In this document: positions 3,598 through 20,740 of the stretch, in pieces | Numbering within the stretch: the stretch's first letter is position 1 | Layout: each line of letters starts with the position of its first letter | Source of the DNA: Chloroflexota bacterium | GTDB lineage: Bacteria > Chloroflexota > UBA11872 > VXOZ01 | Assembly: GCA_009839775.1 (NCBI GenBank) | Contig: VXOZ01000005.1 | Span: 1-32,382 of the forward strand | DNA: 32,382 nt | Direction: 5' to 3' | Notes under the pieces: model-generated | What the model saw: the letters and a program-made list of their open reading frames with translations, nothing else | Databases searched by the model: none | What the model was told of the DNA's origin: nothing | Program-made: the position numbers and the translations under genes

Positions 3598-3672
3598 TGG
3601 AGCCGACGACGAGACTTGAACTCGTGACCCCATCCTTACCATGGATGTGCTCTACCGCTGAGCTACGTCGGC
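3598..3672 (-). tRNA. tRNA-Thr (anticodon GGT), copy 2
   Basis: Identical over 75 nt to 2031-2105, with the same fold. The flanking hairpin and pre-tRNA flank are also related to those of copy 1. Confidence 0.9.
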
Positions 3673-8840: not shown

Positions 8841-8932
<92 letters not shown>

Positions 8933-10983: not shown

Positions 10984-11060
10984 AGGGGAGTAGCTCAGTT
11001 GGCTAGAGCATCGGTCTCCAAAACCGAGGGTCGCAGGTTCGAATCCTGTCTCCCCTGCCA
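10984..11060 (+). tRNA. tRNA-Trp (anticodon CCA)
   Basis: Acceptor AGGGGAG/CTCCCCT, D arm GCTC-AGTTGGCTA-GAGC, anticodon stem TCGGT/ACCGA with loop CTCCAAA (CCA), and T arm GCAGG-TTCGAAT-CCTGT, then G and CCA. Base composition changes sharply right after position 11060. Confidence 0.9.
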
Positions 11061-11125: not shown

Positions 11126-13744
11126 ATGGCTTTTGACTCATCACAAAAATGTGGATCACTGTGGAGAAAGTGGGATATACAAATACAGCCCATAAAAAAT
11201 GCATGGCTTCCTAATCTTGAGAAAAATAAAAATGCAATCAAAAAGGCAACTAGAGAATATCTTCAACAAGCGACAGATGCAGAGATGTCCGTCGTAGCGA
11301 TTACTGATCATAATTGTGGTATGGCCGTAGATGCAGCATTACAAATCATCGAGGAGGAAGGCTGCAACATTAAAGTGCTTCCAGGTGTAGAAATCGATAC
11401 AGAAATTGGATACCAATTACTTATAATTTTTAACCCAGCTTATAGAGAAGCAATCTGTAAAGACACTTGGGAGGACGCCGTGGAGCATTTCTTGAACAAC
11501 ATTTGCAATCTGCCCTCGCCGGTAATTAATATGGACGGTCAAGCCAAGTCCATTGGCGGAGACATTCATGCAGTATTAACCCGCATATGCAAAGAAGATA
11601 TAGGTGTACCCGTTTTTGCGCATTGTCAAAGTGATAAAGGTTTGTTCAAAAAAGCAACGCCCGCTCGTCGTCAAGAGTATTTCAATAATTATCTACAAGG
11701 CAAGTATTACTTTGCGCTTGATCATAAGAGTGATGAAAGCATAGAGGCAACAAAAGAGACTATTAAGGGCTGGGGGATGGACGAGAGTAAATTTGCTTAT
11801 GTGAAGAGTTCTGATTCTCATCAAGCTTCTTTATCGGGATCTGTTTTCTCTTGGATTAAAGCAGATCCTACATTCGAAGGCCTAAGGCAAATTATCTATG
11901 AACCGATGGAGAGGATAAGAATACAGATAGAGGATCCTTCTCTGGAGTACAATAAGCCTTATTTCTCGAAAATTAATATAAAAAAGCAGATTGGGGTATT
12001 TAATCGGAAAGACAATCAGGTTTATCTATCTCAAAACACACTCACCTTGAATAAGAATCTGGTCACAATTATAGGTGGCCGCGGAACCGGTAAGAGTATT
12101 TTAATCGACTATTGGGCGAGCATTTTTGAAAAAAATATATCTGATGAGCCAGAGCGCTATTCCAGCAAAGAAGATTTTTGCATAGAGTACGCTAAAGACA
12201 ATGTGCTCAATCCGAGCACAGAAATCTATTGCGGTAATGGAGAAAATTATCTGGATTTTATTTACATACCGCAATCTCAGTTAAAAGAGGTTTCACAAAA
12301 AGATAGGATTGAGGAAGAGGTGAAGCAGTTATTGGATCTAGAAAACCTGCATTTTTCTCAGAGTTTAAACAGTGAGATCCAAAGCCTCTTGGAAAATATT
12401 AACAAGCTTGATAGCTGGTTTCTAGAAGAGGATGAAAAGGGGAGGCAATGGAATCAGGCAGAATATATCAAAGTTCGCCGAGCTAAGAATGAAAAACTGC
12501 TTCTAAGTATCACAACGCAAGACAATAGAGAGAAGCTCAAAAAGTATACCGATAACATCAGTGCAATAGAAGAGGTAAAAAACAGCCTAAGGTATTTAAA
12601 CGATACTAGCCAAAAGATAGTACAGACGCAAAGAATACTCAATTCAAATATAGACGAGATTAACCTCAGACTATCTTCTATTACAGGATCCAAAAAAATA
12701 GAATCATTATCTTTCAAGAGCCAGCTGGCAAGTATCGAAGAAAACATAGATCTTTTGGGCCGGCAAGAGGAAGAAAAACGAGATGAAAATGAAAAAATCA
12801 AGGCGGATTTTGAAAAAGAGGGCTTTGTTGGGGACTTGGTCAGCCTGCTAAAGAATGCCAGAATGTACCAGGCCAATATTAAGGATGCAGACCAAAGACT
12901 ATCGGTCATAGAGAAGAAGGAGGAGGAACTACAAGAACTTCTTGTTAAGAGAAATAAGCTAGCTTTTAAATTTAAGGATGAGTATGAGAAACAAAAAGGT
13001 AAAATAGATAAGTCATGGCGCGATATTTTAGAAAAACACGAGGGTGCGCATAAAGACCTGATAGAAAGAATTTTACTTAAGGACGGTAGGATATCTGTTG
13101 AGGGGGAAATTGTTTTTGATCAGGGCAAATTTTACGAGAAATTACTTGATATTGTCGATAAGCGCACGTACAAAGATATTGGTGCCTTAAAAGAAAAAGT
13201 AGGGGTATCCAGTTTTGACGACTGGGTGGTGTTTGTAAATGCAGAACTTAAAAATTTTCTGGATAGTGAAGATCCATCTAGATCTGAGAAGATTATGAGT
13301 GTAATTTTTAGCCCTAAAGAACGTAAGGACTACTTGAGGACTACACCTAAAATCAAATATGATAGCAAGAACTTGGATCGCTTATCTGCTGGACAAAGAG
13401 GGACCGTTTACTTATGCCTGAAATTGGCTACGCATGCTTTCTCTAAACCCATTATTTTTGACCAACCAGAGGATGATTTGGATAACCAGTTTATTGTCAA
13501 TGAGCTCATTGGCATATTCAGGCAACTCAAATATTATCGTCAAATCATTATTGCGACTCACAACGCTAACTTAGTTGTTAATGCGGACGCTGAGCAAATA
13601 ATCATCGCAGACAATGTTGATGAAAAACTATTTTACACCTCCGGCTCTCTAGAAAATCCGGCAGTAATAAATAAGGTCTGTAATATCCTAGAAGGTGGCG
13701 AAGAGGCCTTTGAGAGAAGGAAGAATAGATACCATCTCAACTAA
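11126..13744 (+). CDS. PHP-domain / Rad50-SbcC-like ABC ATPase fusion protein (TrlF/PplA-like candidate defence protein)
   Basis: The N-terminal region of about 270 aa carries PHP-like motifs: VAITDHN, PGVEID, VFAHCQSD and SSDSHQ, then WIKADPTFEGL. Walker A is GGRGTGKS (nt 12074-12097). A Lys/Glu-rich coiled-coil insert of about 350 aa follows. The ABC signature is LSAGQRG (from nt 13382), Walker B is IIFDQPEDDLD (13451-13483) and the H-loop is ATHNAN. Confidence 0.8.
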   Translation: MAFDSSQKCGSLWRKWDIQIQPIKNAWLPNLEKNKNAIKKATREYLQQATDAEMSVVAITDHNCGMAVDAALQIIEEEGCNIKVLPGVEIDTEIGYQLLIIFNPAYREAICKDTWEDAVEHFLNNICNLPSPVINMDGQAKSIGGDIHAVLTRICKEDIGVPVFAHCQSDKGLFKKATPARRQEYFNNYLQGKYYFALDHKSDESIEATKETIKGWGMDESKFAYVKSSDSHQASLSGSVFSWIKADPTFEGLRQIIYEPMERIRIQIEDPSLEYNKPYFSKINIKKQIGVFNRKDNQVYLSQNTLTLNKNLVTIIGGRGTGKSILIDYWASIFEKNISDEPERYSSKEDFCIEYAKDNVLNPSTEIYCGNGENYLDFIYIPQSQLKEVSQKDRIEEEVKQLLDLENLHFSQSLNSEIQSLLENINKLDSWFLEEDEKGRQWNQAEYIKVRRAKNEKLLLSITTQDNREKLKKYTDNISAIEEVKNSLRYLNDTSQKIVQTQRILNSNIDEINLRLSSITGSKKIESLSFKSQLASIEENIDLLGRQEEEKRDENEKIKADFEKEGFVGDLVSLLKNARMYQANIKDADQRLSVIEKKEEELQELLVKRNKLAFKFKDEYEKQKGKIDKSWRDILEKHEGAHKDLIERILLKDGRISVEGEIVFDQGKFYEKLLDIVDKRTYKDIGALKEKVGVSSFDDWVVFVNAELKNFLDSEDPSRSEKIMSVIFSPKERKDYLRTTPKIKYDSKNLDRLSAGQRGTVYLCLKLATHAFSKPIIFDQPEDDLDNQFIVNELIGIFRQLKYYRQIIIATHNANLVVNADAEQIIIADNVDEKLFYTSGSLENPAVINKVCNILEGGEEAFERRKNRYHLN

Positions 13745-13749
13745 AGAGA

Positions 13750-16700
13750 TTAGAGATTTCTATATTTCTTAAAACTCTCTACCTGTTCAAAGATTTCCTT
13801 ATACACCTCGTCACGATCAACAGGGGGATAGTTGTGGTCAGCTAGTAAAACAATAAGATTGGCTTTCAATTCCGCTTTGATATCTTCACGCTTATCCCAG
13901 GCAGCGTATCTGGTTTTGCTGTCAACTAGTGATTTGACCGATTTAGCAAGATTAACTAATTTATCGTCGGGGTACTCAAAATTATATTTGACTGTTAGGG
14001 CTTTTAGGATGTCGTAAAATGCCTTCTCTTCGACTACGATTCCGAGTTTTTTGAAGGAGTGGTATTCTTCCTTAAGGTTATGGATGAGGTCGACGATTTC
14101 ATTTGTAAAATCCTCGACAACTTCACTGACCAACATATCTTCTTTACGCTTGTTGTATTTATCCACTAATACTTTAAGTTTTTGCGAGAAATCAATGCTC
14201 TTGATTTTGTTCACTTTCTTGAAATCATCAATGGCTTTGGAAAGCAGTCGTTGAAGTAGTTTAAGTTTAGTATTGGGTAGTTGTATCTGCTCTATTTTTT
14301 GCAGGTACTTATCATCAAAAACATCAATCTTAGCTGTTTGATCCTCGCTTAATTTTAAAATTTCCTCAATTCCTTCACTCTTCAAGGCTTCTTGTATCAT
14401 TGCGCTCACGCGTTTGTTCATTTGGGCAGCATCAGGGGCTTCACCTTTAGTCAATTTATATATGATGGAGCGGATAGCTAGGTAAAAATGAATGCGATCC
14501 CGCTCTTTATCTGAAAATGAATGTGAATCACCGCTACAGATATTGTATGCAGCCTTCATGCGCTTTACGAGACGCATAAAACGCCTCTCGATATCATACG
14601 TAGTCTGTGCGTATTCAGCGGCCATATTGAGTGTATGCAGCTGCTCGACGGGTGAACCATCGAAATATTTTGAACCATCAAATTTGTGAAAGATTTTATC
14701 CAGTAAATGCAAATGATCCTTTACTATCACTACAGACTGTTGGATATCTTCGATATTGCCAAGGCTTGTCTTATCATATTGCGCCAATGCCAGATTCATT
14801 TGCTTTTTGATACCGATATAATCTACGACAAGCCCCTTAATTTTGCCGCCAGCCTTGCGGTTGACGCGCGAAATAGTTTGAATCAGCGTATGTTTTTGAA
14901 TGGGTTTATCCAGATACATCGTATCGAGGAAAGGTACGTCAAAGCCGGTCAACCACATATCGACTACGATAGCTATACGGAAGTTTGATTTTATAAACTT
15001 GAATTGACGATCTAGCTCCTTGCGGTCTGCCTTGGTGCCAAGCATGGAATATAATGCCGGGTCATCGTCTTGGTTCCGGGTCATAACCAATTTTATGCGC
15101 TCCATAGGCTTGATTTCGCGCTTTTCTCTTTCACTCAGTTCAATGCCATCTGCCGCGAATTCAACTTCCACCCATTCAGGTCGTAATGCGATGATTTCTT
15201 TGTATAACGAGTAGGCAATTTGTCTACTACTCGAAACGAATAACGCCTTGCCAGCAATGGTCGCGTTTTCTTTGATACGGTTTTCATAATGCTCCACGAA
15301 GTCTGCTGCCAGCGAACGGACACGATCAGGGTCGCCCAAAATCATGGATAATTTGGTATTGGCTTTTTTGCTTTCTTCTATTTGATATTCACTAGCGCCG
15401 GCCTCTGCAGCTTGAGCGTAATACTTCTCAATTTCTCTTAATTTACTATTGTCCAGCAGCACCTTTGCTGCACGTCCCTCATATGTAATATCCACGGTGA
15501 TTTCATCTTTCACTGATTCCCGCATAGTATAACTATCGACCACTTCGCCAAAAACATCTAACGTAGCATCTATTGGCGTGCCTGTGAAACCGACATAAGT
15601 CGCATTGGGTAGCGAATCATGTAAGTACTTAGCAAATCCATATGAGCGTTGCACGCCGTCAGAAGTGACGACAACTTTCTGATCAAAATTCACCTGACTG
15701 CGATGAGCTTCGTCGGATATGCAGATTACATTACTGCGACCACTTAGCAAACTGGCCTTTTCAGAGAATTTCTGGATAGTGGTAAGGAATACTCCGCCAC
15801 TTTGGCGATTCTTCAGAGATTCATGTAGTTGAGAACGGCTGTCAATACTGAAGATAGTGGAATCTCCAATAAATGTCTTAGCGTTAGTAAAAAGTCCGGC
15901 CAATTGGTCATCCAAATCGGTACGGTCAGTAATCAGCAGGATTGTAGGGCTCTCAAAATCTACGCTTTTCATCAATAAGCGTGCAAGGTAAAGCATTATG
16001 TAGCTTTTACCGCTGCCGGTCGCACCAAAATATGTACCACCGCGGCCGTCACCGCTGGGGCGCCGATGCTCTTTAATATTCTCGTACAATTTGGTTGCGG
16101 CATAGAACTGCGGATATCGGCAAACAATCTTCTCCTCCTTATTGGTTGTATCGGGAAAATAAATGAAGTGCTGAATTACTTCTCTCAGGCGCGTTTTATC
16201 AAAAAGGCCTTCTATCATAGTATATAGAGATTTAATACCGTCGCATTCAAACACCTCTGCGCCATCAGTTTTACGCCATGCATAAAAGAATTCGTAAGGG
16301 GCAAAGAATGACCCCATTTTTGTGTTTGCACCATCACTGATAACGCAGAATGCATTGTACTTGAATAGCGTTGGTATATCCCTGCGATAACGATTAGTTA
16401 ATTGAATATAGGCATCATGCAATGTGGTGTTTTCACGTATGGCGCTCTTGAACTCGAAAACCACCAACGGTATTCCATTTATGTATAAAACACAGTCCGG
16501 TATGCGAGTCTCAAATCCCCTTATTTCAAGCTGATTTATGATTTTATAGATATTTTTATCGCTATTAGAATAGTCAATCAGCTCAATATAAAGATCCTTT
16601 TTATTGTGATCCTCTCGCTTCAGTAAAAAACCATCTGATATCTGGCGCATAATTTTCTTATTACTGCCATACAAATCTGATTCTGGTAGTAGCTTAAGCT

Positions 16701-16899
16701 CGCGTAGTATGGAGGAAATTTCGCTATCAGTAATACCGTCAGATGCATAGCGTCCCGACAGGTACTTGCGTAAATCATCGGCTAATAATACCTCGGTCAA
16801 TTTACGATCTATATCATCTCCACAAACATGTGTGATATTTTGCTCACTGAGTAGTGAGATGATAGCTTGTTCTAATTTTTCTTCCGTAAATTTCTGCAT
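13750..16899 (-). CDS. hsdR: Type I restriction enzyme R subunit (endonuclease/helicase)
   Basis: 1049 aa. The N-terminal PD-(D/E)xK region is IPDCVLYINGIPLVVFEFKS. SF2 helicase motif I is GATGSGKS and motif II is DEAH (ISDEAHRSQ). There is a long helical C-terminal domain. The gene is last in the M-S-R operon. Confidence 0.93.
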   Translation of the reverse strand: MQKFTEEKLEQAIISLLSEQNITHVCGDDIDRKLTEVLLADDLRKYLSGRYASDGITDSEISSILRELKLLPESDLYGSNKKIMRQISDGFLLKREDHNKKDLYIELIDYSNSDKNIYKIINQLEIRGFETRIPDCVLYINGIPLVVFEFKSAIRENTTLHDAYIQLTNRYRRDIPTLFKYNAFCVISDGANTKMGSFFAPYEFFYAWRKTDGAEVFECDGIKSLYTMIEGLFDKTRLREVIQHFIYFPDTTNKEEKIVCRYPQFYAATKLYENIKEHRRPSGDGRGGTYFGATGSGKSYIMLYLARLLMKSVDFESPTILLITDRTDLDDQLAGLFTNAKTFIGDSTIFSIDSRSQLHESLKNRQSGGVFLTTIQKFSEKASLLSGRSNVICISDEAHRSQVNFDQKVVVTSDGVQRSYGFAKYLHDSLPNATYVGFTGTPIDATLDVFGEVVDSYTMRESVKDEITVDITYEGRAAKVLLDNSKLREIEKYYAQAAEAGASEYQIEESKKANTKLSMILGDPDRVRSLAADFVEHYENRIKENATIAGKALFVSSSRQIAYSLYKEIIALRPEWVEVEFAADGIELSEREKREIKPMERIKLVMTRNQDDDPALYSMLGTKADRKELDRQFKFIKSNFRIAIVVDMWLTGFDVPFLDTMYLDKPIQKHTLIQTISRVNRKAGGKIKGLVVDYIGIKKQMNLALAQYDKTSLGNIEDIQQSVVIVKDHLHLLDKIFHKFDGSKYFDGSPVEQLHTLNMAAEYAQTTYDIERRFMRLVKRMKAAYNICSGDSHSFSDKERDRIHFYLAIRSIIYKLTKGEAPDAAQMNKRVSAMIQEALKSEGIEEILKLSEDQTAKIDVFDDKYLQKIEQIQLPNTKLKLLQRLLSKAIDDFKKVNKIKSIDFSQKLKVLVDKYNKRKEDMLVSEVVEDFTNEIVDLIHNLKEEYHSFKKLGIVVEEKAFYDILKALTVKYNFEYPDDKLVNLAKSVKSLVDSKTRYAAWDKREDIKAELKANLIVLLADHNYPPVDRDEVYKEIFEQVESFKKYRNL

Positions 16900-16911
16900 T
16901 GCTATACTTGT

Positions 16912-18030
16912 CTAGGTATTCTGCGTTACGCCGCGTATAAGCACGGGTGCGATGGCATGAAGCTTAGTTCTCAAAGCCTCATTGAGGCGCTTACGAGTTT
17001 CAAGCACACGATGCATGGCGACAATAGATTTTTGCACTTTTATACTTGGGATGGGTAGGGATACTCGGCACATATCATCCCAGTTGAATGTCTCGCGAGC
17101 GCTCCCCCAAGAATGAAAGCGAGCATACCGATTAAACTCGGGTCTTTTCACCCATAGTAGCAGAAATTCAGGCAACAATTTTTGGCTATCTATGACTTCA
17201 AAGACAGTGTAGATACTTGAAACGATAACAATGTTAGAGTGCATGAGCGCCATTGCAATCTTATCACCACGGCGAGAAGTATCTGCTACGTAAGCAAATT
17301 GCTGGGGTCTAACTATCTTATATAGAGATAAATCAAGTTTGCCCTGCTTAGCCTTAGAATGTATAAATTCTTTTGAAGTAGAAATACCTCTAAGATCTGT
17401 GATTTCCAAATCTTGATTTCTGACATCAACCTGTCGGATGTGATCGGCTAACTTTTGTCTGGGTGTTACTTTTGCTAACTCTTCCATAAATGTATTTATG
17501 ATAGACTCCAGGCTGTCAAGGCTCTCCTCGTGGGATCTTTGCAATTGCAAAAGGGAATGATACACAGAGGAATAACACTCCTGTATTTTAGGAGTTGGGA
17601 CAGGTATTGGGATGTCACAGAAACGGCTCCATTCCAAGCTGGCACGAATACTGGAATCACATACATAGCTACAGTATCTATCAAATTCAGATCTTAGGAA
17701 GATAAGCATTAAATAAGCTGGCAGAAGCCCATCTCCTTGATTTATTGCGAATATTTTGTATGCAGGAGATACAATCGCAGGCTTCTTGCTATCATACAAA
17801 GCCACGCCAAGTCGATTATCTCTTCCGATCTGCATTAGGTTGATGAGGAATTGGTTCTTCTGTATTATCTGGTATTTAGATAGGTCAGTTTCTGATAAAT
17901 TGGCAACTGTAGGAATATATTTTTTATTAATACTTATGCCCAATACTTGAGTAATAGTACTTCCGCTGTTGCGCTCATCCACTAAAGAAATGTAGTCGCC
18001 TAGGCGTTTGTCATTCGAGCTCATATCCAA
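16912..18030 (-). CDS. hsdS: Type I restriction-modification S (specificity) subunit
   Basis: 372 aa with two variable target-recognition regions separated by helical conserved regions: a central ...YHSLLQLQRSHEESLDSLESIINTFMEEL and a C-terminal ...AMHRVLETRKRLNEALRTKL. It overlaps the hsdM stop by 20 nt. Confidence 0.88.
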   Translation of the reverse strand: MDMSSNDKRLGDYISLVDERNSGSTITQVLGISINKKYIPTVANLSETDLSKYQIIQKNQFLINLMQIGRDNRLGVALYDSKKPAIVSPAYKIFAINQGDGLLPAYLMLIFLRSEFDRYCSYVCDSSIRASLEWSRFCDIPIPVPTPKIQECYSSVYHSLLQLQRSHEESLDSLESIINTFMEELAKVTPRQKLADHIRQVDVRNQDLEITDLRGISTSKEFIHSKAKQGKLDLSLYKIVRPQQFAYVADTSRRGDKIAMALMHSNIVIVSSIYTVFEVIDSQKLLPEFLLLWVKRPEFNRYARFHSWGSARETFNWDDMCRVSLPIPSIKVQKSIVAMHRVLETRKRLNEALRTKLHAIAPVLIRGVTQNT

Positions 18031-19570
18031 GTTCTTTGAATGCCTGTATTAATTCCTTGCGCGCCGCTTGTTCAACTTTGAGTAATTCTGAGAATTCAAC
18101 TTGCATACGTCGCATCTCCTTGTCAAAATCTATGCCGGAGTCACGGTCTACAAATTCTATATACCTACTTGGTGTAAGCGAGTAATCGTTAGCTTTCACT
18201 AAATCTAAACCTGCAACATAGCAAAATTCTGGCACATCTCTGTAAGCGTGGTTCTCTTGCCAGCTGTGGTATGTAGTTGATACTTTAGTAATCTCGTCTT
18301 CTGTAAGCTGGATGTATTTCTTTTCATATTCAGACCCCCAAGTGCGTAAATCCACGAACAGGATCTTGCCAGATCTGTCCTTTAGGTTGCGAATTCTTTG
18401 TGGCGTATTGATCTGACGCTCTTTCTTGTTTTTATTGATAACCCAGAGTGTTACGCTAATATCCGTTGAATAAAATGTGTCGCGTGGCAGTGTAATAATC
18501 GCTTCAATCAGATCATTCTCTATTAGTTTTTTGCGAATATTAAGCGTGTCAGCATCGTTCAGCGCGCCATTAGCCAATAGAAAGCCTGCAACACCATTCT
18601 CGGAAAGTTTAGAGACCATATGCAGAATCCAGCCATAATTGGCATTACTGGCTGGCGGTACATCGTAACCGGACCAGCGAGGGTCATCTATCAGCTCATC
18701 TTCTCCTCGCCAAGCTTTGAGATTGAATGGAGGGTTTGCCATAATGTAATCTGCTTTGAGGTCGGGATGCTGATCTTTAGCAAAACTGTCCGCGGGCTTA
18801 TTGCCTAGGTCAGCAGAAATACCGCGAATTGCTAAGTTCATTTTTGCGAGTTTGTAGGTCGTGGCAATTTGCTCTTGGCCGTATATGGCGATATCTTTCT
18901 TATCTCCCCGATGCGCTTCTACGAACTTCACAGATTGTACAAACATGCCACCGGTTCCGCAACAGGGATCGTAGATTATACCTTTGTATGGTTCAATCAT
19001 TTCAGCGATAAGATTGACGATACATTTAGGTGTGTAGAATTCGCCTTTCATGTTCTTTTCCGCAATGGAAAATTGTTTGAGGAAATATTCATACACTCTG
19101 CCGACAATATCTTGTGATTCGTTCGCTAGGGTATCTATGTTGTTATTGATCTCATCTAGCAGGGAAGCAAGCTTGCTAATTTCCAAGTTAAGCCGAGAAA
19201 AATAATTATCTGGCAGAGCTCCTCTGAGTGATGAATTAGATTTCTCTATGTTGTGTAATGCAGTGTCAATCTTTGCGGCAATGTCTGTCTGTTTGGCGTT
19301 TTGCATAATGTATTGCCATCTGCATTCAGGCTCCAAATAGAAGACATTGTCCTTAGTATAAAATTCTACTCTGTCGAGGTATTGTTCCTTGCCTTCAGCA
19401 GCAAGCCTTCTGCGCTGCCTCTCGAATGTGTCACTGGCGTACTTTAAGAAAATAAGACTCAGCACAACGTGCTTGTATTCGCCCGGCTCTATGCTGCCGC
19501 GAAGTTTATTTGCTGCTTCCCACAGAGTTTCTTCAATACCTTTTTGCTTCTTGGAAGTTTGTTTCGCCAT
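18011..19570 (-). CDS. hsdM: Type I restriction-modification M subunit (N6-adenine DNA methyltransferase)
   Basis: N-terminal HsdM helical domain (LWEAANKLRGSIEPGEYKHVVLSLIFLKY), SAM motif IYDPCCGTGGMF and catalytic NPPF (MANPPFNL). The track start at 19579 is a GTG; I prefer the ATG at 19570 (MAKQTSKK...). Confidence 0.92.
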   Translation of the reverse strand: MAKQTSKKQKGIEETLWEAANKLRGSIEPGEYKHVVLSLIFLKYASDTFERQRRRLAAEGKEQYLDRVEFYTKDNVFYLEPECRWQYIMQNAKQTDIAAKIDTALHNIEKSNSSLRGALPDNYFSRLNLEISKLASLLDEINNNIDTLANESQDIVGRVYEYFLKQFSIAEKNMKGEFYTPKCIVNLIAEMIEPYKGIIYDPCCGTGGMFVQSVKFVEAHRGDKKDIAIYGQEQIATTYKLAKMNLAIRGISADLGNKPADSFAKDQHPDLKADYIMANPPFNLKAWRGEDELIDDPRWSGYDVPPASNANYGWILHMVSKLSENGVAGFLLANGALNDADTLNIRKKLIENDLIEAIITLPRDTFYSTDISVTLWVINKNKKERQINTPQRIRNLKDRSGKILFVDLRTWGSEYEKKYIQLTEDEITKVSTTYHSWQENHAYRDVPEFCYVAGLDLVKANDYSLTPSRYIEFVDRDSGIDFDKEMRRMQVEFSELLKVEQAARKELIQAFKELGYELE

Positions 19571-19697
19571 GCCTAACACATTATATCTTTTAATCAGTGA
19601 AACTAGAAGCCTGACAGCAAGGTATACGGGCAGTTTCTGTTACTATAACCTCAAAGCTTTCGAGCTGGCGCTCCAAGGATTCTAATGCCAAAAAGAT

Positions 19698-20150: not shown

Positions 20151-20179
20151 TTGACTGGAGTGCACACAAGGTGTATAAT
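20151..20179 (+). promoter_or_regulatory. Near-consensus sigma70 promoter of toxin-antitoxin operon 1 (leaderless)
   Basis: TTGACT (20151-20156), an exactly 17-nt spacer and TATAAT (20174-20179). Only 7 nt (TCGTAAC) separate the -10 box from the ATG at 20187. Confidence 0.75.
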
Positions 20180-20186
20180 TCGTAAC

Positions 20187-20480
20187 ATGAATAAAGTAGT
20201 TGTGAATATCAAGGTCGATCAGGAGACCAAGAAAGCAGCTCAGGCATTGGCTAACGATCTGGGTCTGACTCTTAGCGGCCTTGTCAATGCTCAGTTGAAG
20301 CAGTTAGTCAGGCAGCAGCAGCTGGTATTGTACGCCACTTATCCTGAGCAGCCCATGAGTCCTAAATTAGAGGCTGAGCTGGATCAAGTCTATGGAGAGA
20401 TCGAGCGTGGAGATGTCAGCCAGCCTCACGCCAGTCTGGACAGTTTTCTCGATGATTTAAACCAGCTTCCAAGCGAATGA
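20187..20480 (+). CDS. Type II antitoxin, DinJ/RelB (ribbon-helix-helix) family, copy 1
   Basis: MNKVVVNIKVDQETKKAAQALANDLGLTLSGLVNAQLKQLV is a DinJ/RelB-type N-terminus and is a paralogue of 22585..22869. Its stop overlaps the toxin start (ATGA). I prefer the internal ATG over the track start at 20151, which lies in the promoter. Confidence 0.8.
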   Translation: MNKVVVNIKVDQETKKAAQALANDLGLTLSGLVNAQLKQLVRQQQLVLYATYPEQPMSPKLEAELDQVYGEIERGDVSQPHASLDSFLDDLNQLPSE

Positions 20481-20740
20481 TTGTCCGTTACAGCAAAAGA
20501 TTCCAAAAACAATTCCATTCACGATTATCCCCCAAAATGAGGCAGCAGTTCGGGCGACGACTGGAGCTGTTTTTAGCTAATCCGCGACATTCTCGACTGA
20601 ACGTCCATTCCTTGTCCGGGAAGTATGCCGGTTGCTGGAGCATGAATGTGAGCGGTGATGTCAGAGCGATCTTCGAGTATCAGGGCAGCCAAGCGGTAAT
20701 ACTGTTTTTAGTGATCGGCACGCACGCTCAGCTTTATTAA
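20477..20740 (+). CDS. Type II toxin, YafQ/RelE (ParE/RelE superfamily) mRNA interferase, copy 1
   Basis: 87 aa. The pattern ...HSLSGKYAGCWSMNVSGDVRAIFEY...VIGTHAQLY resembles the YafQ/RelE C-terminus (L.G...G......D.R.I....GTH..L). It is translationally coupled to the antitoxin. Confidence 0.8.
   Translation: MIVRYSKRFQKQFHSRLSPKMRQQFGRRLELFLANPRHSRLNVHSLSGKYAGCWSMNVSGDVRAIFEYQGSQAVILFLVIGTHAQLY

Follow-up and report, generated by a model that had tools for sequence, protein, structure and literature searches.

The window analysed here, the entire 32,382-bp contig VXOZ01000005.1 of a Chloroflexi metagenome-assembled genome (MAG), carries next to a type I restriction-modification (R-M) operon a gene, trlF, whose 872-amino-acid product is deposited there as 'hypothetical protein'. 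The product truly belongs to TrlF, a family that had been annotated before, in which a PHP-fold phosphoesterase is fused to an SMC/Rad50-like ABC ATPase, and what is new about it lies at the subfamily level only. Its first PHP motif reads Q-x-Q in place of H-x-H. Judged from the pattern of conservation, the two Gln are kept by selection and the motif is the hallmark of a discrete, monophyletic lineage of PHP modules, which appears to have recombined onto divergent ATPase modules with the junction near an invariant WIKADPTFEGL linker. We consider it somewhat probable (about 0.55) that TrlF is a single-polypeptide defence enzyme, a nucleotide-gated, Ppl-like PHP nuclease that acts on DNA ends and complements restriction. 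The new elements are a Q-x-Q PHP cassette under selection, repeated switches from H to Q while the carboxylates stay invariant, exchange of cassettes between ATPases, and a natural Gln at the catalytic position of Walker B; the searchable literature describes none of these.

Family membership was decided with the NCBIfam model NF045780 (TrlF family AAA-like ATPase), which gives 444.1 bits against a cut-off of 350 and aligns residues 10-870 with positions 2-944 of its 944. The initial annotation, made from the sequence alone, had proposed TrlF and suggested this hidden Markov model (HMM) search, and the protein passes the curated cut-off over its full length. The name presumably stands for type I restriction-linked. 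A second correspondence proposed there, to PplA of the Ppl system, does not hold: the NCBIfam Ppl model (NF042955) gives 122.6 bits against a cut-off of 1000, with its best stretch at residues 746-868 only, and the PADLOC Ppl model (PDLC02208) gives 91.6 bits over residues 749-868 only, that is, the last ~120 residues. The model for the Spaf_1101 family AAA-like ATPase (NF045781) reaches 174.8 bits against a cut-off of 475. Membership in both the Ppl and the Spaf_1101 families is rejected on these curated cut-offs, and Ppl is a relative at the level of the superfamily. A megablast search of E. coli genomes gave no match.

Fold, motifs and modules of TrlF

The Pfam search proposed in the initial annotation matched both expected domains, but below their gathering cut-offs: PHP (PF02811) with 22.2 bits against 26.4, over residues 43-93 only, and SMC_N with 21.9 bits against 40. 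The fold assignment therefore rests on structure comparison. The AlphaFold 2 (AF2) model of residues 1-275 has a predicted local distance difference test score (pLDDT) of 93.4 and a predicted template modelling score (pTM) of 0.91, and its top 27 Foldseek matches in the Protein Data Bank (PDB) all have the PHP fold; they include RNase AM (9etk, the best, 5.5e-8), BAD_1165, the PHP domain of Pol III alpha, Endonuclease Q (TMq 0.60) and Cv1693. The PHP nucleases (RNase AM YciV/TrpH, Endonuclease Q, Pol III alpha/PolX PHP) share the fold at 5.5e-8 to 1e-5, and the equivalents of H62, E89, H166 and D230-x-H232 are kept between them and TrlF, but motif I of TrlF is Q-x-Q rather than H-x-H and identity is only 12-17%. 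The full-length model, built with 82 homologues (pLDDT 88.2, pTM 0.74), matches SMC, cohesin, RecN, JetC, RecF and Rad50 heads with coiled coils, the best being 5xei (Smc head, coiled coil and joint; 4e-10). Among PDB sequences the family profile finds Rad50 (3.6e-9, the best match) and AriA (3.7e-6); phmmer with the single protein found no match there, and the profile was needed. The three-part architecture that had been read from the motifs, a PHP phosphoesterase joined to an SMC/Rad50-like ABC head that a coiled coil divides, is borne out by the AF2 models and Foldseek, and the comparison with PHP nucleases and SbcCD suggested at that stage leads from the N-domain to PHP-fold proteins and from the remainder to SMC/Rad50-type heads.

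Motif I departs from the PHP pattern. Q19-I-Q21 aligns column for column with the H-x-H of 90 of the 120 best homologues; the others have Q-x-Q (13), Q-x-H (7), Q-x-E (1) or Q-x-C (1), or lack the region in the alignment (8). H-x-H is the majority state and Q-x-Q the trait of a clade, which answers the question, raised in the initial annotation, of which is the norm. The group of the window protein shares the extended motif WRKWDLQ[VI]QP[IV]K, and the same Q-x-Q in conserved context recurs in dozens of independent assemblies. The clade has and conserves the remaining PHP ligand motifs, namely D61-H62 (motif II), E89 with H166 (motif III) and D230-S-H232 (motif IV). In 82 aligned sequences of all motif classes, D17, E89 and D230 never vary and D61 hardly does. 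The positions without variation inside the Q-x-Q clade are D17, Q19, P22, D61-H62-N63, E89, H166 and S229-D230; one member of the clade, P0015, carries a Glu at position 21.

When 1.84 billion protein cluster representatives were searched exhaustively with HMMER, the N-domain being the sole query, the outcome was 1062 relatives at E <= 1e-3 and 24 at E <= 1e-30. These 24 closest representatives comprise 19 with Q-x-Q, two with H-x-H, one with Q-x-H and two without a recognisable motif; a search of a word-indexed database with the N-domain gave mainly truncated fragments. Very close relatives with H-x-H or Q-x-H are interspersed in a second lineage, Q-x-Q-T..LD, as exemplified by P0164 (QVQTYIDPR), P0165 (HTHTYLDPN) and P0166 (QVHTYLDPN). 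Rarer variants of motif I in the exhaustive search are Q-x-C, Q-x-G, Q-x-A and H-x-Q, and at least 8 changes of motif class are required on the neighbour-joining (NJ) tree of N-domains. Across 11 loci of the Q-x-Q clade, CAA and CAG are both used at both Gln positions and neighbouring codons vary synonymously, yet His, one third-position change away, is absent. N-domain identity to the window protein equals or exceeds ATPase identity in nine of ten Q-x-Q-P relatives, the values in the tenth, P0015, being 41.7 and 42.8%. Since a whole lineage keeps Q-x-Q as its selected state, the motif is neither a lesion nor a sequencing error, and the earlier suggestion of an altered or inactive metal site in this copy was wrong in its scope. 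The conservation pattern would fit a remodelled, functional pocket better than a decaying one. One further protein, P0181 (2858 amino acids), has 19 separate stretches that match N-domain residues 181-232 and may be a repeat protein composed of a fragment-like unit or a low-complexity artefact.

The N-domain (residues 1-270) and the ATPase (residues 271-872) were compared separately with those of the window protein. Identities are 41-64% for Q-x-Q N-domains and only ~25-30% for H-x-H N-domains. The ATPases of P0005 and P0006 are 58-60% identical, and their N-domains are H-x-H and align only at residues 224-267; P0095 has the reverse arrangement, with an N-domain of 62% identity and an ATPase of only 25%. 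NJ trees of each module, built from 77 proteins, place the 11 Q-x-Q-P members in a clade of their own by N-domain and scatter them over the entire ATPase tree. The mismatch of identities and the contrast between the trees argue that the Q-x-Q domain recombined onto different ATPase chassis.

In the head, K323 of Walker A, Q383 of the Q-loop, S754 of the signature, D786 of the D-loop and H812 of the H-loop are invariant or nearly so among the 82 sequences. Walker B is D-Q-P-E family-wide: Q780, at least 90% conserved, aligns with the catalytic Glu of Rad50 (IILD-E-P-T..LD), a Glu (E782) stands at +2, and no peptide of the family is better conserved than DQPEDDLD. The catalytic Glu at Walker B is the residue altered in 'EQ' ATP-trap mutants. 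The initial annotation had called the ATPase intact, which is right for Walker A, Q-loop, signature, D-loop and H-loop but not for Walker B, where Gln occupies the catalytic Glu position. Because the canonical Glu is replaced, the head is probably a slow nucleotide switch; it may serve as such a switch or sensor rather than as a motor or fast ATPase, an idea that would agree with the statement in a 2026 review (PMC12904381) that binding of nucleoside triphosphates (NTPs) inhibits Ppl. The coiled coil, put at about 350 residues in the initial annotation, corresponds to an insertion of ~335 residues between the head lobes, but its long-helix part (residues 412-654) is only ~245 residues long, and no Zn hook (CxxC) or Cys was found at its apex (~residues 505-535).

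Genomic contexts of TrlF relatives

Four of the eight informative contexts of the Q-x-Q-P clade, the window included, are type I loci, and the other four hold other defence genes. P0018 lies in the order hsdM-DUF3800-DUF2513-hsdS-trlF-hsdR, with an EcoR124-like R subunit and trlF overlapping hsdR by 35 nt; P0100 has the same layout with trlF broken into 717 and 106 amino acids; and P0149 has hsdM..hsdS-trlF-...-HEC-01A/B-hsdR with an EcoEI-like R subunit. In these three loci trlF stands between hsdS and hsdR on the same strand, the open reading frames (ORFs) abutting or overlapping, which is a prrC-like position. With the HindI-like HsdR of the window, the type I loci of the clade involve three HsdR families. 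P0086 adjoins an MmeI-type IIG enzyme and a Schlafen/AlbA_2 protein, P0148 follows a GmrSD/HNH-like gene, and P0003 and P0004 follow the PADLOC candidate system PDC-M33; the context of P0095 is uninformative. Relatives with H-x-H or Q-x-H have type III, type I in a phage-like region, other methyltransferases (MTases) or nothing recognisable alongside.

For the wider superfamily, 80 loci from species-representative genomes were surveyed. Single-sequence phmmer was too insensitive for Hsd subunits in these loci, and only those containing HsdS were counted as type I because iterated HsdM/HsdR HMMs drifted to generic N6-MTases and helicases. Five loci have a complete adjacent type I system (M+S+R) and a sixth has M+S only, while in at least 20 further loci other restriction-type genes, for an MTase or a helicase, stand no more than 6 kb away. 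TrlF proteins are annotated in many genomes, and homologues are also carried by 1147 PLSDB plasmids, mostly conjugative plasmids of Enterobacteriaceae; the best-matching of these homologues are annotated 'TrlF family AAA-like ATPase', and one copy is annotated 'DNA repair protein'. Both plasmid TrlFs that were examined are H-x-H (WDLHIHSP), each encoded by a gene that stands alone next to an integrase. The window protein shares with the RefSeq-annotated plasmid TrlFs the PHP plus ABC-ATPase architecture of NF045780 members and, as is frequent in the family, its gene adjoins type I R-M; the plasmid-borne and majority TrlFs, however, are H-x-H, whereas the window protein belongs to the minority Q-x-Q-P[IV]K lineage, with D-H-N instead of D-Y at motif II. 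TrlF genes reside in defence islands, and their coupling to R-M is frequent without being obligatory. The type I linkage proposed in the initial annotation stands in so far as a complete hsdR/S/M set adjoins trlF, but it is not obligatory, as relatives lie by type IIG, III or IV enzymes or candidate systems, or alone on conjugative plasmids.

Several of these loci have features of their own. The 717-amino-acid product P0100 occurs on 8 contigs, and the split layout was seen in the two that were read (L087 10001-12608 and L088 6453-9060), where the 106-amino-acid ORF holds the C-terminus of the ATPase and the hsd operon is otherwise intact; it may be a disrupted copy. At L098 5908-7722 the operon of P0149 has an hsdS fused to, or preceded by, NTP_transf_2/Polbeta and NTase_sub_bind domains that have the look of an MNT/HEPN-like toxin-antitoxin system, and this hsd operon, which has HEC-01A/B between trlF and hsdR, serves as a landing pad for several defence genes. 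At L085 977-4679 and L086 2522-6315, P0004 and P0003, the closest relatives with full context, follow a conserved three-gene cluster with matches to PDC-M33 (A and C) and DUF6339, which may be a recurring non-R-M partner of TrlF. In the context of P0011 (L092 1-18769) a Q-x-H TrlF is accompanied by HsdR, an HsdM/S fusion and a PD-(D/E)XK protein, with portal/minor-capsid genes and major-capsid/tail genes at its flanks, and the whole looks like a defence cassette in a phage or prophage morphogenesis region. Seven TrlF-like genes (L051, L052, L054, L057, L064, L065 and L071), at ~24% identity and without a recognisable W..WD motif, have directly downstream a conserved partner of ~410 amino acids with Schlafen/AlbA_2 and HATPase_c_4 domains and look like a distinct two-gene system.

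Proposed function and competing explanations

If TrlF is a nucleotide-gated DNA-end nuclease, two heads would dimerise around nucleotide, for which the Walker A, Q-loop, signature, D-loop and H-loop are intact, and the D-Q-P-E head would work more as a slow switch or sensor than as a motor. The head dimer would gate the PHP module, and this module would attack nucleic-acid ends as reported for Ppl. In the Q-x-Q lineage a metal site could still be formed from the invariant carboxylates D17, D61, E89 and D230 and from the His residues H62, H166 and H232; in it the two Gln would swap nitrogen donors for oxygen or hydrogen-bond donors, so that the site would be remodelled and not dead. Beside type I R-M, the most plausible role of TrlF would be to complete the destruction of foreign DNA after cleavage by HsdR has exposed its ends; R-M would not be a requirement, given that plasmid-borne relatives occur on their own. 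Ppl (PplA; Gao et al. 2020), a single-gene system, likewise combines a PHP domain and an ABC-type NTPase in one chain. The 2026 review describes it as an NTP-inhibited 3'-5' exonuclease of single-stranded DNA with a need for 3'-OH ends; by the same account nucleotide depletion and 3'-OH ends activate the exonuclease, and NTPs bind the Ppl PHP site (PMC12904381). Ppl is also a validated defence gene that protects against T7 and Bas63 (PMC11482910).

Several points weigh against such a nuclease. We infer its activity, its polarity and its substrate, DNA or RNA, by analogy, and the best fold match is RNase AM. One metal site may really be lost, because two canonical His are missing and position 21 can be Ala or Gly in related lineages. 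Transfer of the Ppl mechanism is an extrapolation, since the similarity is limited to the C-terminal ATPase lobe, and functional coupling would be weaker here than in the embedded cases because trlF is convergent with hsdR and not co-transcribed with it. The NJ module trees behind the recombination argument carry no support values. The initial annotation had called the mechanism of TrlF and Ppl essentially uncharacterised, which for Ppl is out of date given the 2026 review; for TrlF, a literature search with that name found no experimental study of any such protein and returned only unrelated matches, for example to TRLFS spectroscopy.

An explanation that we hold to be unlikely is that the Q-x-Q PHP module has no catalytic activity and instead has a structural role, binds a ligand or senses nucleotide or DNA ends, and that the protein acts only as an ATP-dependent DNA clamp or sensor which recruits or regulates an effector such as HsdR. 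Both His of motif I are indeed replaced, and related lineages have Arg for the motif IV His and Ala, Gly or Cys at position 21. The PHP domain of E. coli Pol III alpha, which is among the best fold matches, lacks a full metal site, 4jom being the restored '3mPHP' mutant. A place between hsdS and hsdR, as in three relatives, would suit a regulatory partner, and NTPs bind the PHP site of Ppl (PMC12904381). Yet the window protein keeps the four acidic residues as well as H62, H166 and H232, most of them kept across the clade; the Glu at position 21 of P0015 resembles a metal ligand; the N-domain is conserved at least as well as the ATPase in nearly every comparison; and the solitary plasmid members, although H-x-H, have no obvious partner nuclease.

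It is doubtful that TrlF is a guardian like PrrC or PARIS, held inactive by the Hsd complex and released as an abortive-infection nuclease when phage anti-restriction inhibits that complex. PrrC/RloC and PARIS AriA/AriB likewise join an ABC-type NTPase to a nuclease, but the effector of TrlF is a PHP domain rather than an anticodon nuclease or TOPRIM, and the protein has no anticodon-nuclease-like domain. PrrC has a nucleotide-regulated ABC-like NTPase domain and AriA is an ABC ATPase, and the 'RM guardian' concept has been described (PMC12707154); AriA gives weak matches to the TrlF protein or family in PADLOC and in the PDB profile search. The hsdS-trlF-hsdR order of P0018, P0100 and P0149, a prrC position found across the EcoR124-like and EcoEI-like families, would favour a guardian, whereas in the window trlF is not embedded in the hsd operon on the same strand but convergent with hsdR, and many relatives have no type I genes nearby. 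That the partners belong to at least three HsdR families speaks against a specific protein-protein fit.

We entertain only tentatively, as rather improbable, the further proposal that the Q-x-Q PHP domain is an exchangeable effector cassette, with altered metal or substrate chemistry or as a non-catalytic sensor, that prefers hsd operons and works physically with the Hsd complex in a nucleotide-sensing, SMC-like immune switch. If this were true, the cassette, swapped between TrlF ATPase chassis, would be functionally distinct: it would either have an oxygen-donor site, possibly directed at another nucleic acid, or sense nucleotide or DNA ends, and the Hsd partnership of Q-x-Q TrlF would be that of a PrrC-like guardian or of an end-processing partner. 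With the Glu-to-Gln change at Walker B, the switch would sense nucleotide and not hydrolyse ATP.

Housekeeping DNA repair, with TrlF as an analogue of SbcCD/Mre11-Rad50 for hairpins and breaks and its R-M adjacency coincidental, is very unlikely. The likeness lies in an ABC head with a coiled-coil insertion that works with a metal-dependent phosphoesterase nuclease. The best structural or profile matches include heads of Rad50, RecN and RecF, and one plasmid copy carries the repair annotation mentioned above. In TrlF, however, the nuclease has the PHP and not the calcineurin-like fold and is fused to the ATPase, the coiled coil is short (~245 residues) and lacks the Zn hook, and Walker B is D-Q-P-E and not D-E; no calcineurin-like Mre11/SbcD partner is found among the annotated genes of the islet around trlF (trlF, hsdR, hsdS, hsdM and the toxin-antitoxin pair). 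Against repair also stand the low GC content of that islet and its site at a tRNA gene, the patchy taxonomic distribution of the family and its frequency on conjugative plasmids, neighbours that are consistently defence genes, shuffled modules of the kind typical of defence genes, and the experimental validation of the related Ppl as an anti-phage gene. That Q-x-Q is a sequencing or assembly error, or the copy a decaying pseudogene, has a negligible chance and is rejected: although each Gln codon is one third-position change from His and the source is a MAG, the motif recurs in dozens of independent assemblies in conserved context and with synonymous codon variation, and the ORF is full-length with every other motif intact.

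The presumed catalytic motif of TrlF has at least two selected states, H-x-H and Q-x-Q, that switch repeatedly, its nuclease and ATPase modules are exchanged as cassettes, and a Gln stands naturally at the position of the canonical catalytic base. These points may bear on the nucleotide gating of PHP-ATPase defence enzymes, Ppl included, and on their cooperation with restriction enzymes. Should the Q-x-Q motif prove to be harmless variation, the result comes down to the correct assignment of the protein to a known defence family.

Layout of the window

The ORF and all motifs of trlF lie where the initial annotation had placed them, in nucleotide as well as residue coordinates (Table 1). The peptide WDIQIQP spans residues 16-22, its Gln codons being CAA (11180-11182) and CAG (11186-11188), each confirmed to be one third-position change from a His codon. 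The other PHP peptides are VAITDHN (residues 57-63), VFAHCQSD (163-170) and SSDSHQ (228-233), and the family-invariant linker WIKADPTFEGL occupies residues 243-253.

Table 1. Coordinates of trlF, its motifs and neighbouring genes in the window
Feature	Position	Strand	Evidence or remark
tRNA-Trp(CCA), left edge of low-GC islet	10984..11060	+	tRNA call; trlF starts 65 nt downstream
trlF, 872-aa TrlF-family protein (PHP-fold domain + SMC/Rad50-like ABC ATPase), ATG start	11126..13744	+	ORF, NF045780, AF2
N-terminal PHP-fold phosphoesterase module, residues 1-275, Q-x-Q-P[IV]K subfamily, ending in WIKADPTFEGL linker	11126..11950	+	AF2, Foldseek, subfamily alignment
PHP motif I variant D17-I-Q19-I-Q21-P22 at H-x-H position	11174..11191	+	alignments
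PHP motif II D61-H62-N63	11306..11314	+	alignments; invariant in Q-x-Q clade, mostly D-Y in H-x-H relatives
E89 in PGVEID (residues 86-91)	11390..11392	+	invariant across 82 aligned family members
H166 of FAHC	11621..11623	+	invariant inside Q-x-Q clade
PHP motif IV D230-S-H232	11813..11821	+	D230 invariant family-wide
Walker A GGRGTGKS, residues 317-324	12074..12097	+	alignment; K323 invariant
Long-helix antiparallel coiled-coil insertion, residues 412-654, without Cys hook	12359..13087	+	DSSP of AF2 model; best PDB match 5xei
ABC signature LSAGQRG, from residue 753	13382..13402	+	alignment; S754 invariant
Walker B + D-loop IIFD779-Q780-P-E782-DDLD, residues 776-786	13451..13483	+	alignment, Rad50 profile
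H-loop ATHNAN, residues 810-815, H812	13553..13570	+	alignment
hsdR, type I restriction subunit, 1049 aa, HindI-like C-terminus	13750..16899	-	TIGR00348 460 bits; PADLOC REase_I 1211 bits; Pfam HSDR_N, SWI2_SNF2, T1RH-like_C
hsdS, specificity subunit	16912..18030	-	PADLOC Specificity_I 350 bits; Pfam Methylase_S
hsdM, methyltransferase subunit	18011..19579	-	PADLOC MTase_I 490 bits; Pfam HsdM_N + N6_Mtase
RelB-like antitoxin	20151-20480	+	Pfam RelB 24.5 bits, above cut-off
YafQ/HigB-like toxin, overlaps RelB-like ORF, near islet right end	20477-20740	+	YafQ_toxin 28.4 bits, just below cut-off 30

A Shine-Dalgarno-like GAGGTG lies directly 5' of trlF, and in a promoter and terminator scan around the gene promoter-like sites were no commoner than in shuffles. 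The convergence of trlF on hsdR noted in the initial annotation was confirmed from the ORFs, whose ends, stop codons included, are 5 nt apart, with hsdR/S/M identified by NCBIfam, PADLOC and Pfam. Its AT-rich island was found as well: GC content drops from ~0.55 to ~0.40 at ~11.0 kb, is 0.36-0.45 at ~11.0-19.6 kb and 0.44-0.50 up to ~21.4 kb, where it recovers, and is 0.53-0.57 in the flanks. Besides trlF and hsdR/S/M, the resulting islet of ~10 kb contains the RelB/YafQ-like pair. It showed no recognisable integrase, and no direct repeat of at least 12 nt of the 3' end of tRNA-Trp was found as its boundary. The first 9 kb of the window hold four more tRNA genes (203-279, 2031-2105, 3598-3672 and 8841-8932), for Thr-CGT, Thr-GGT (twice, on the minus strand) and Ser-CGA, the two Thr-GGT copies standing ~1.5 kb apart.

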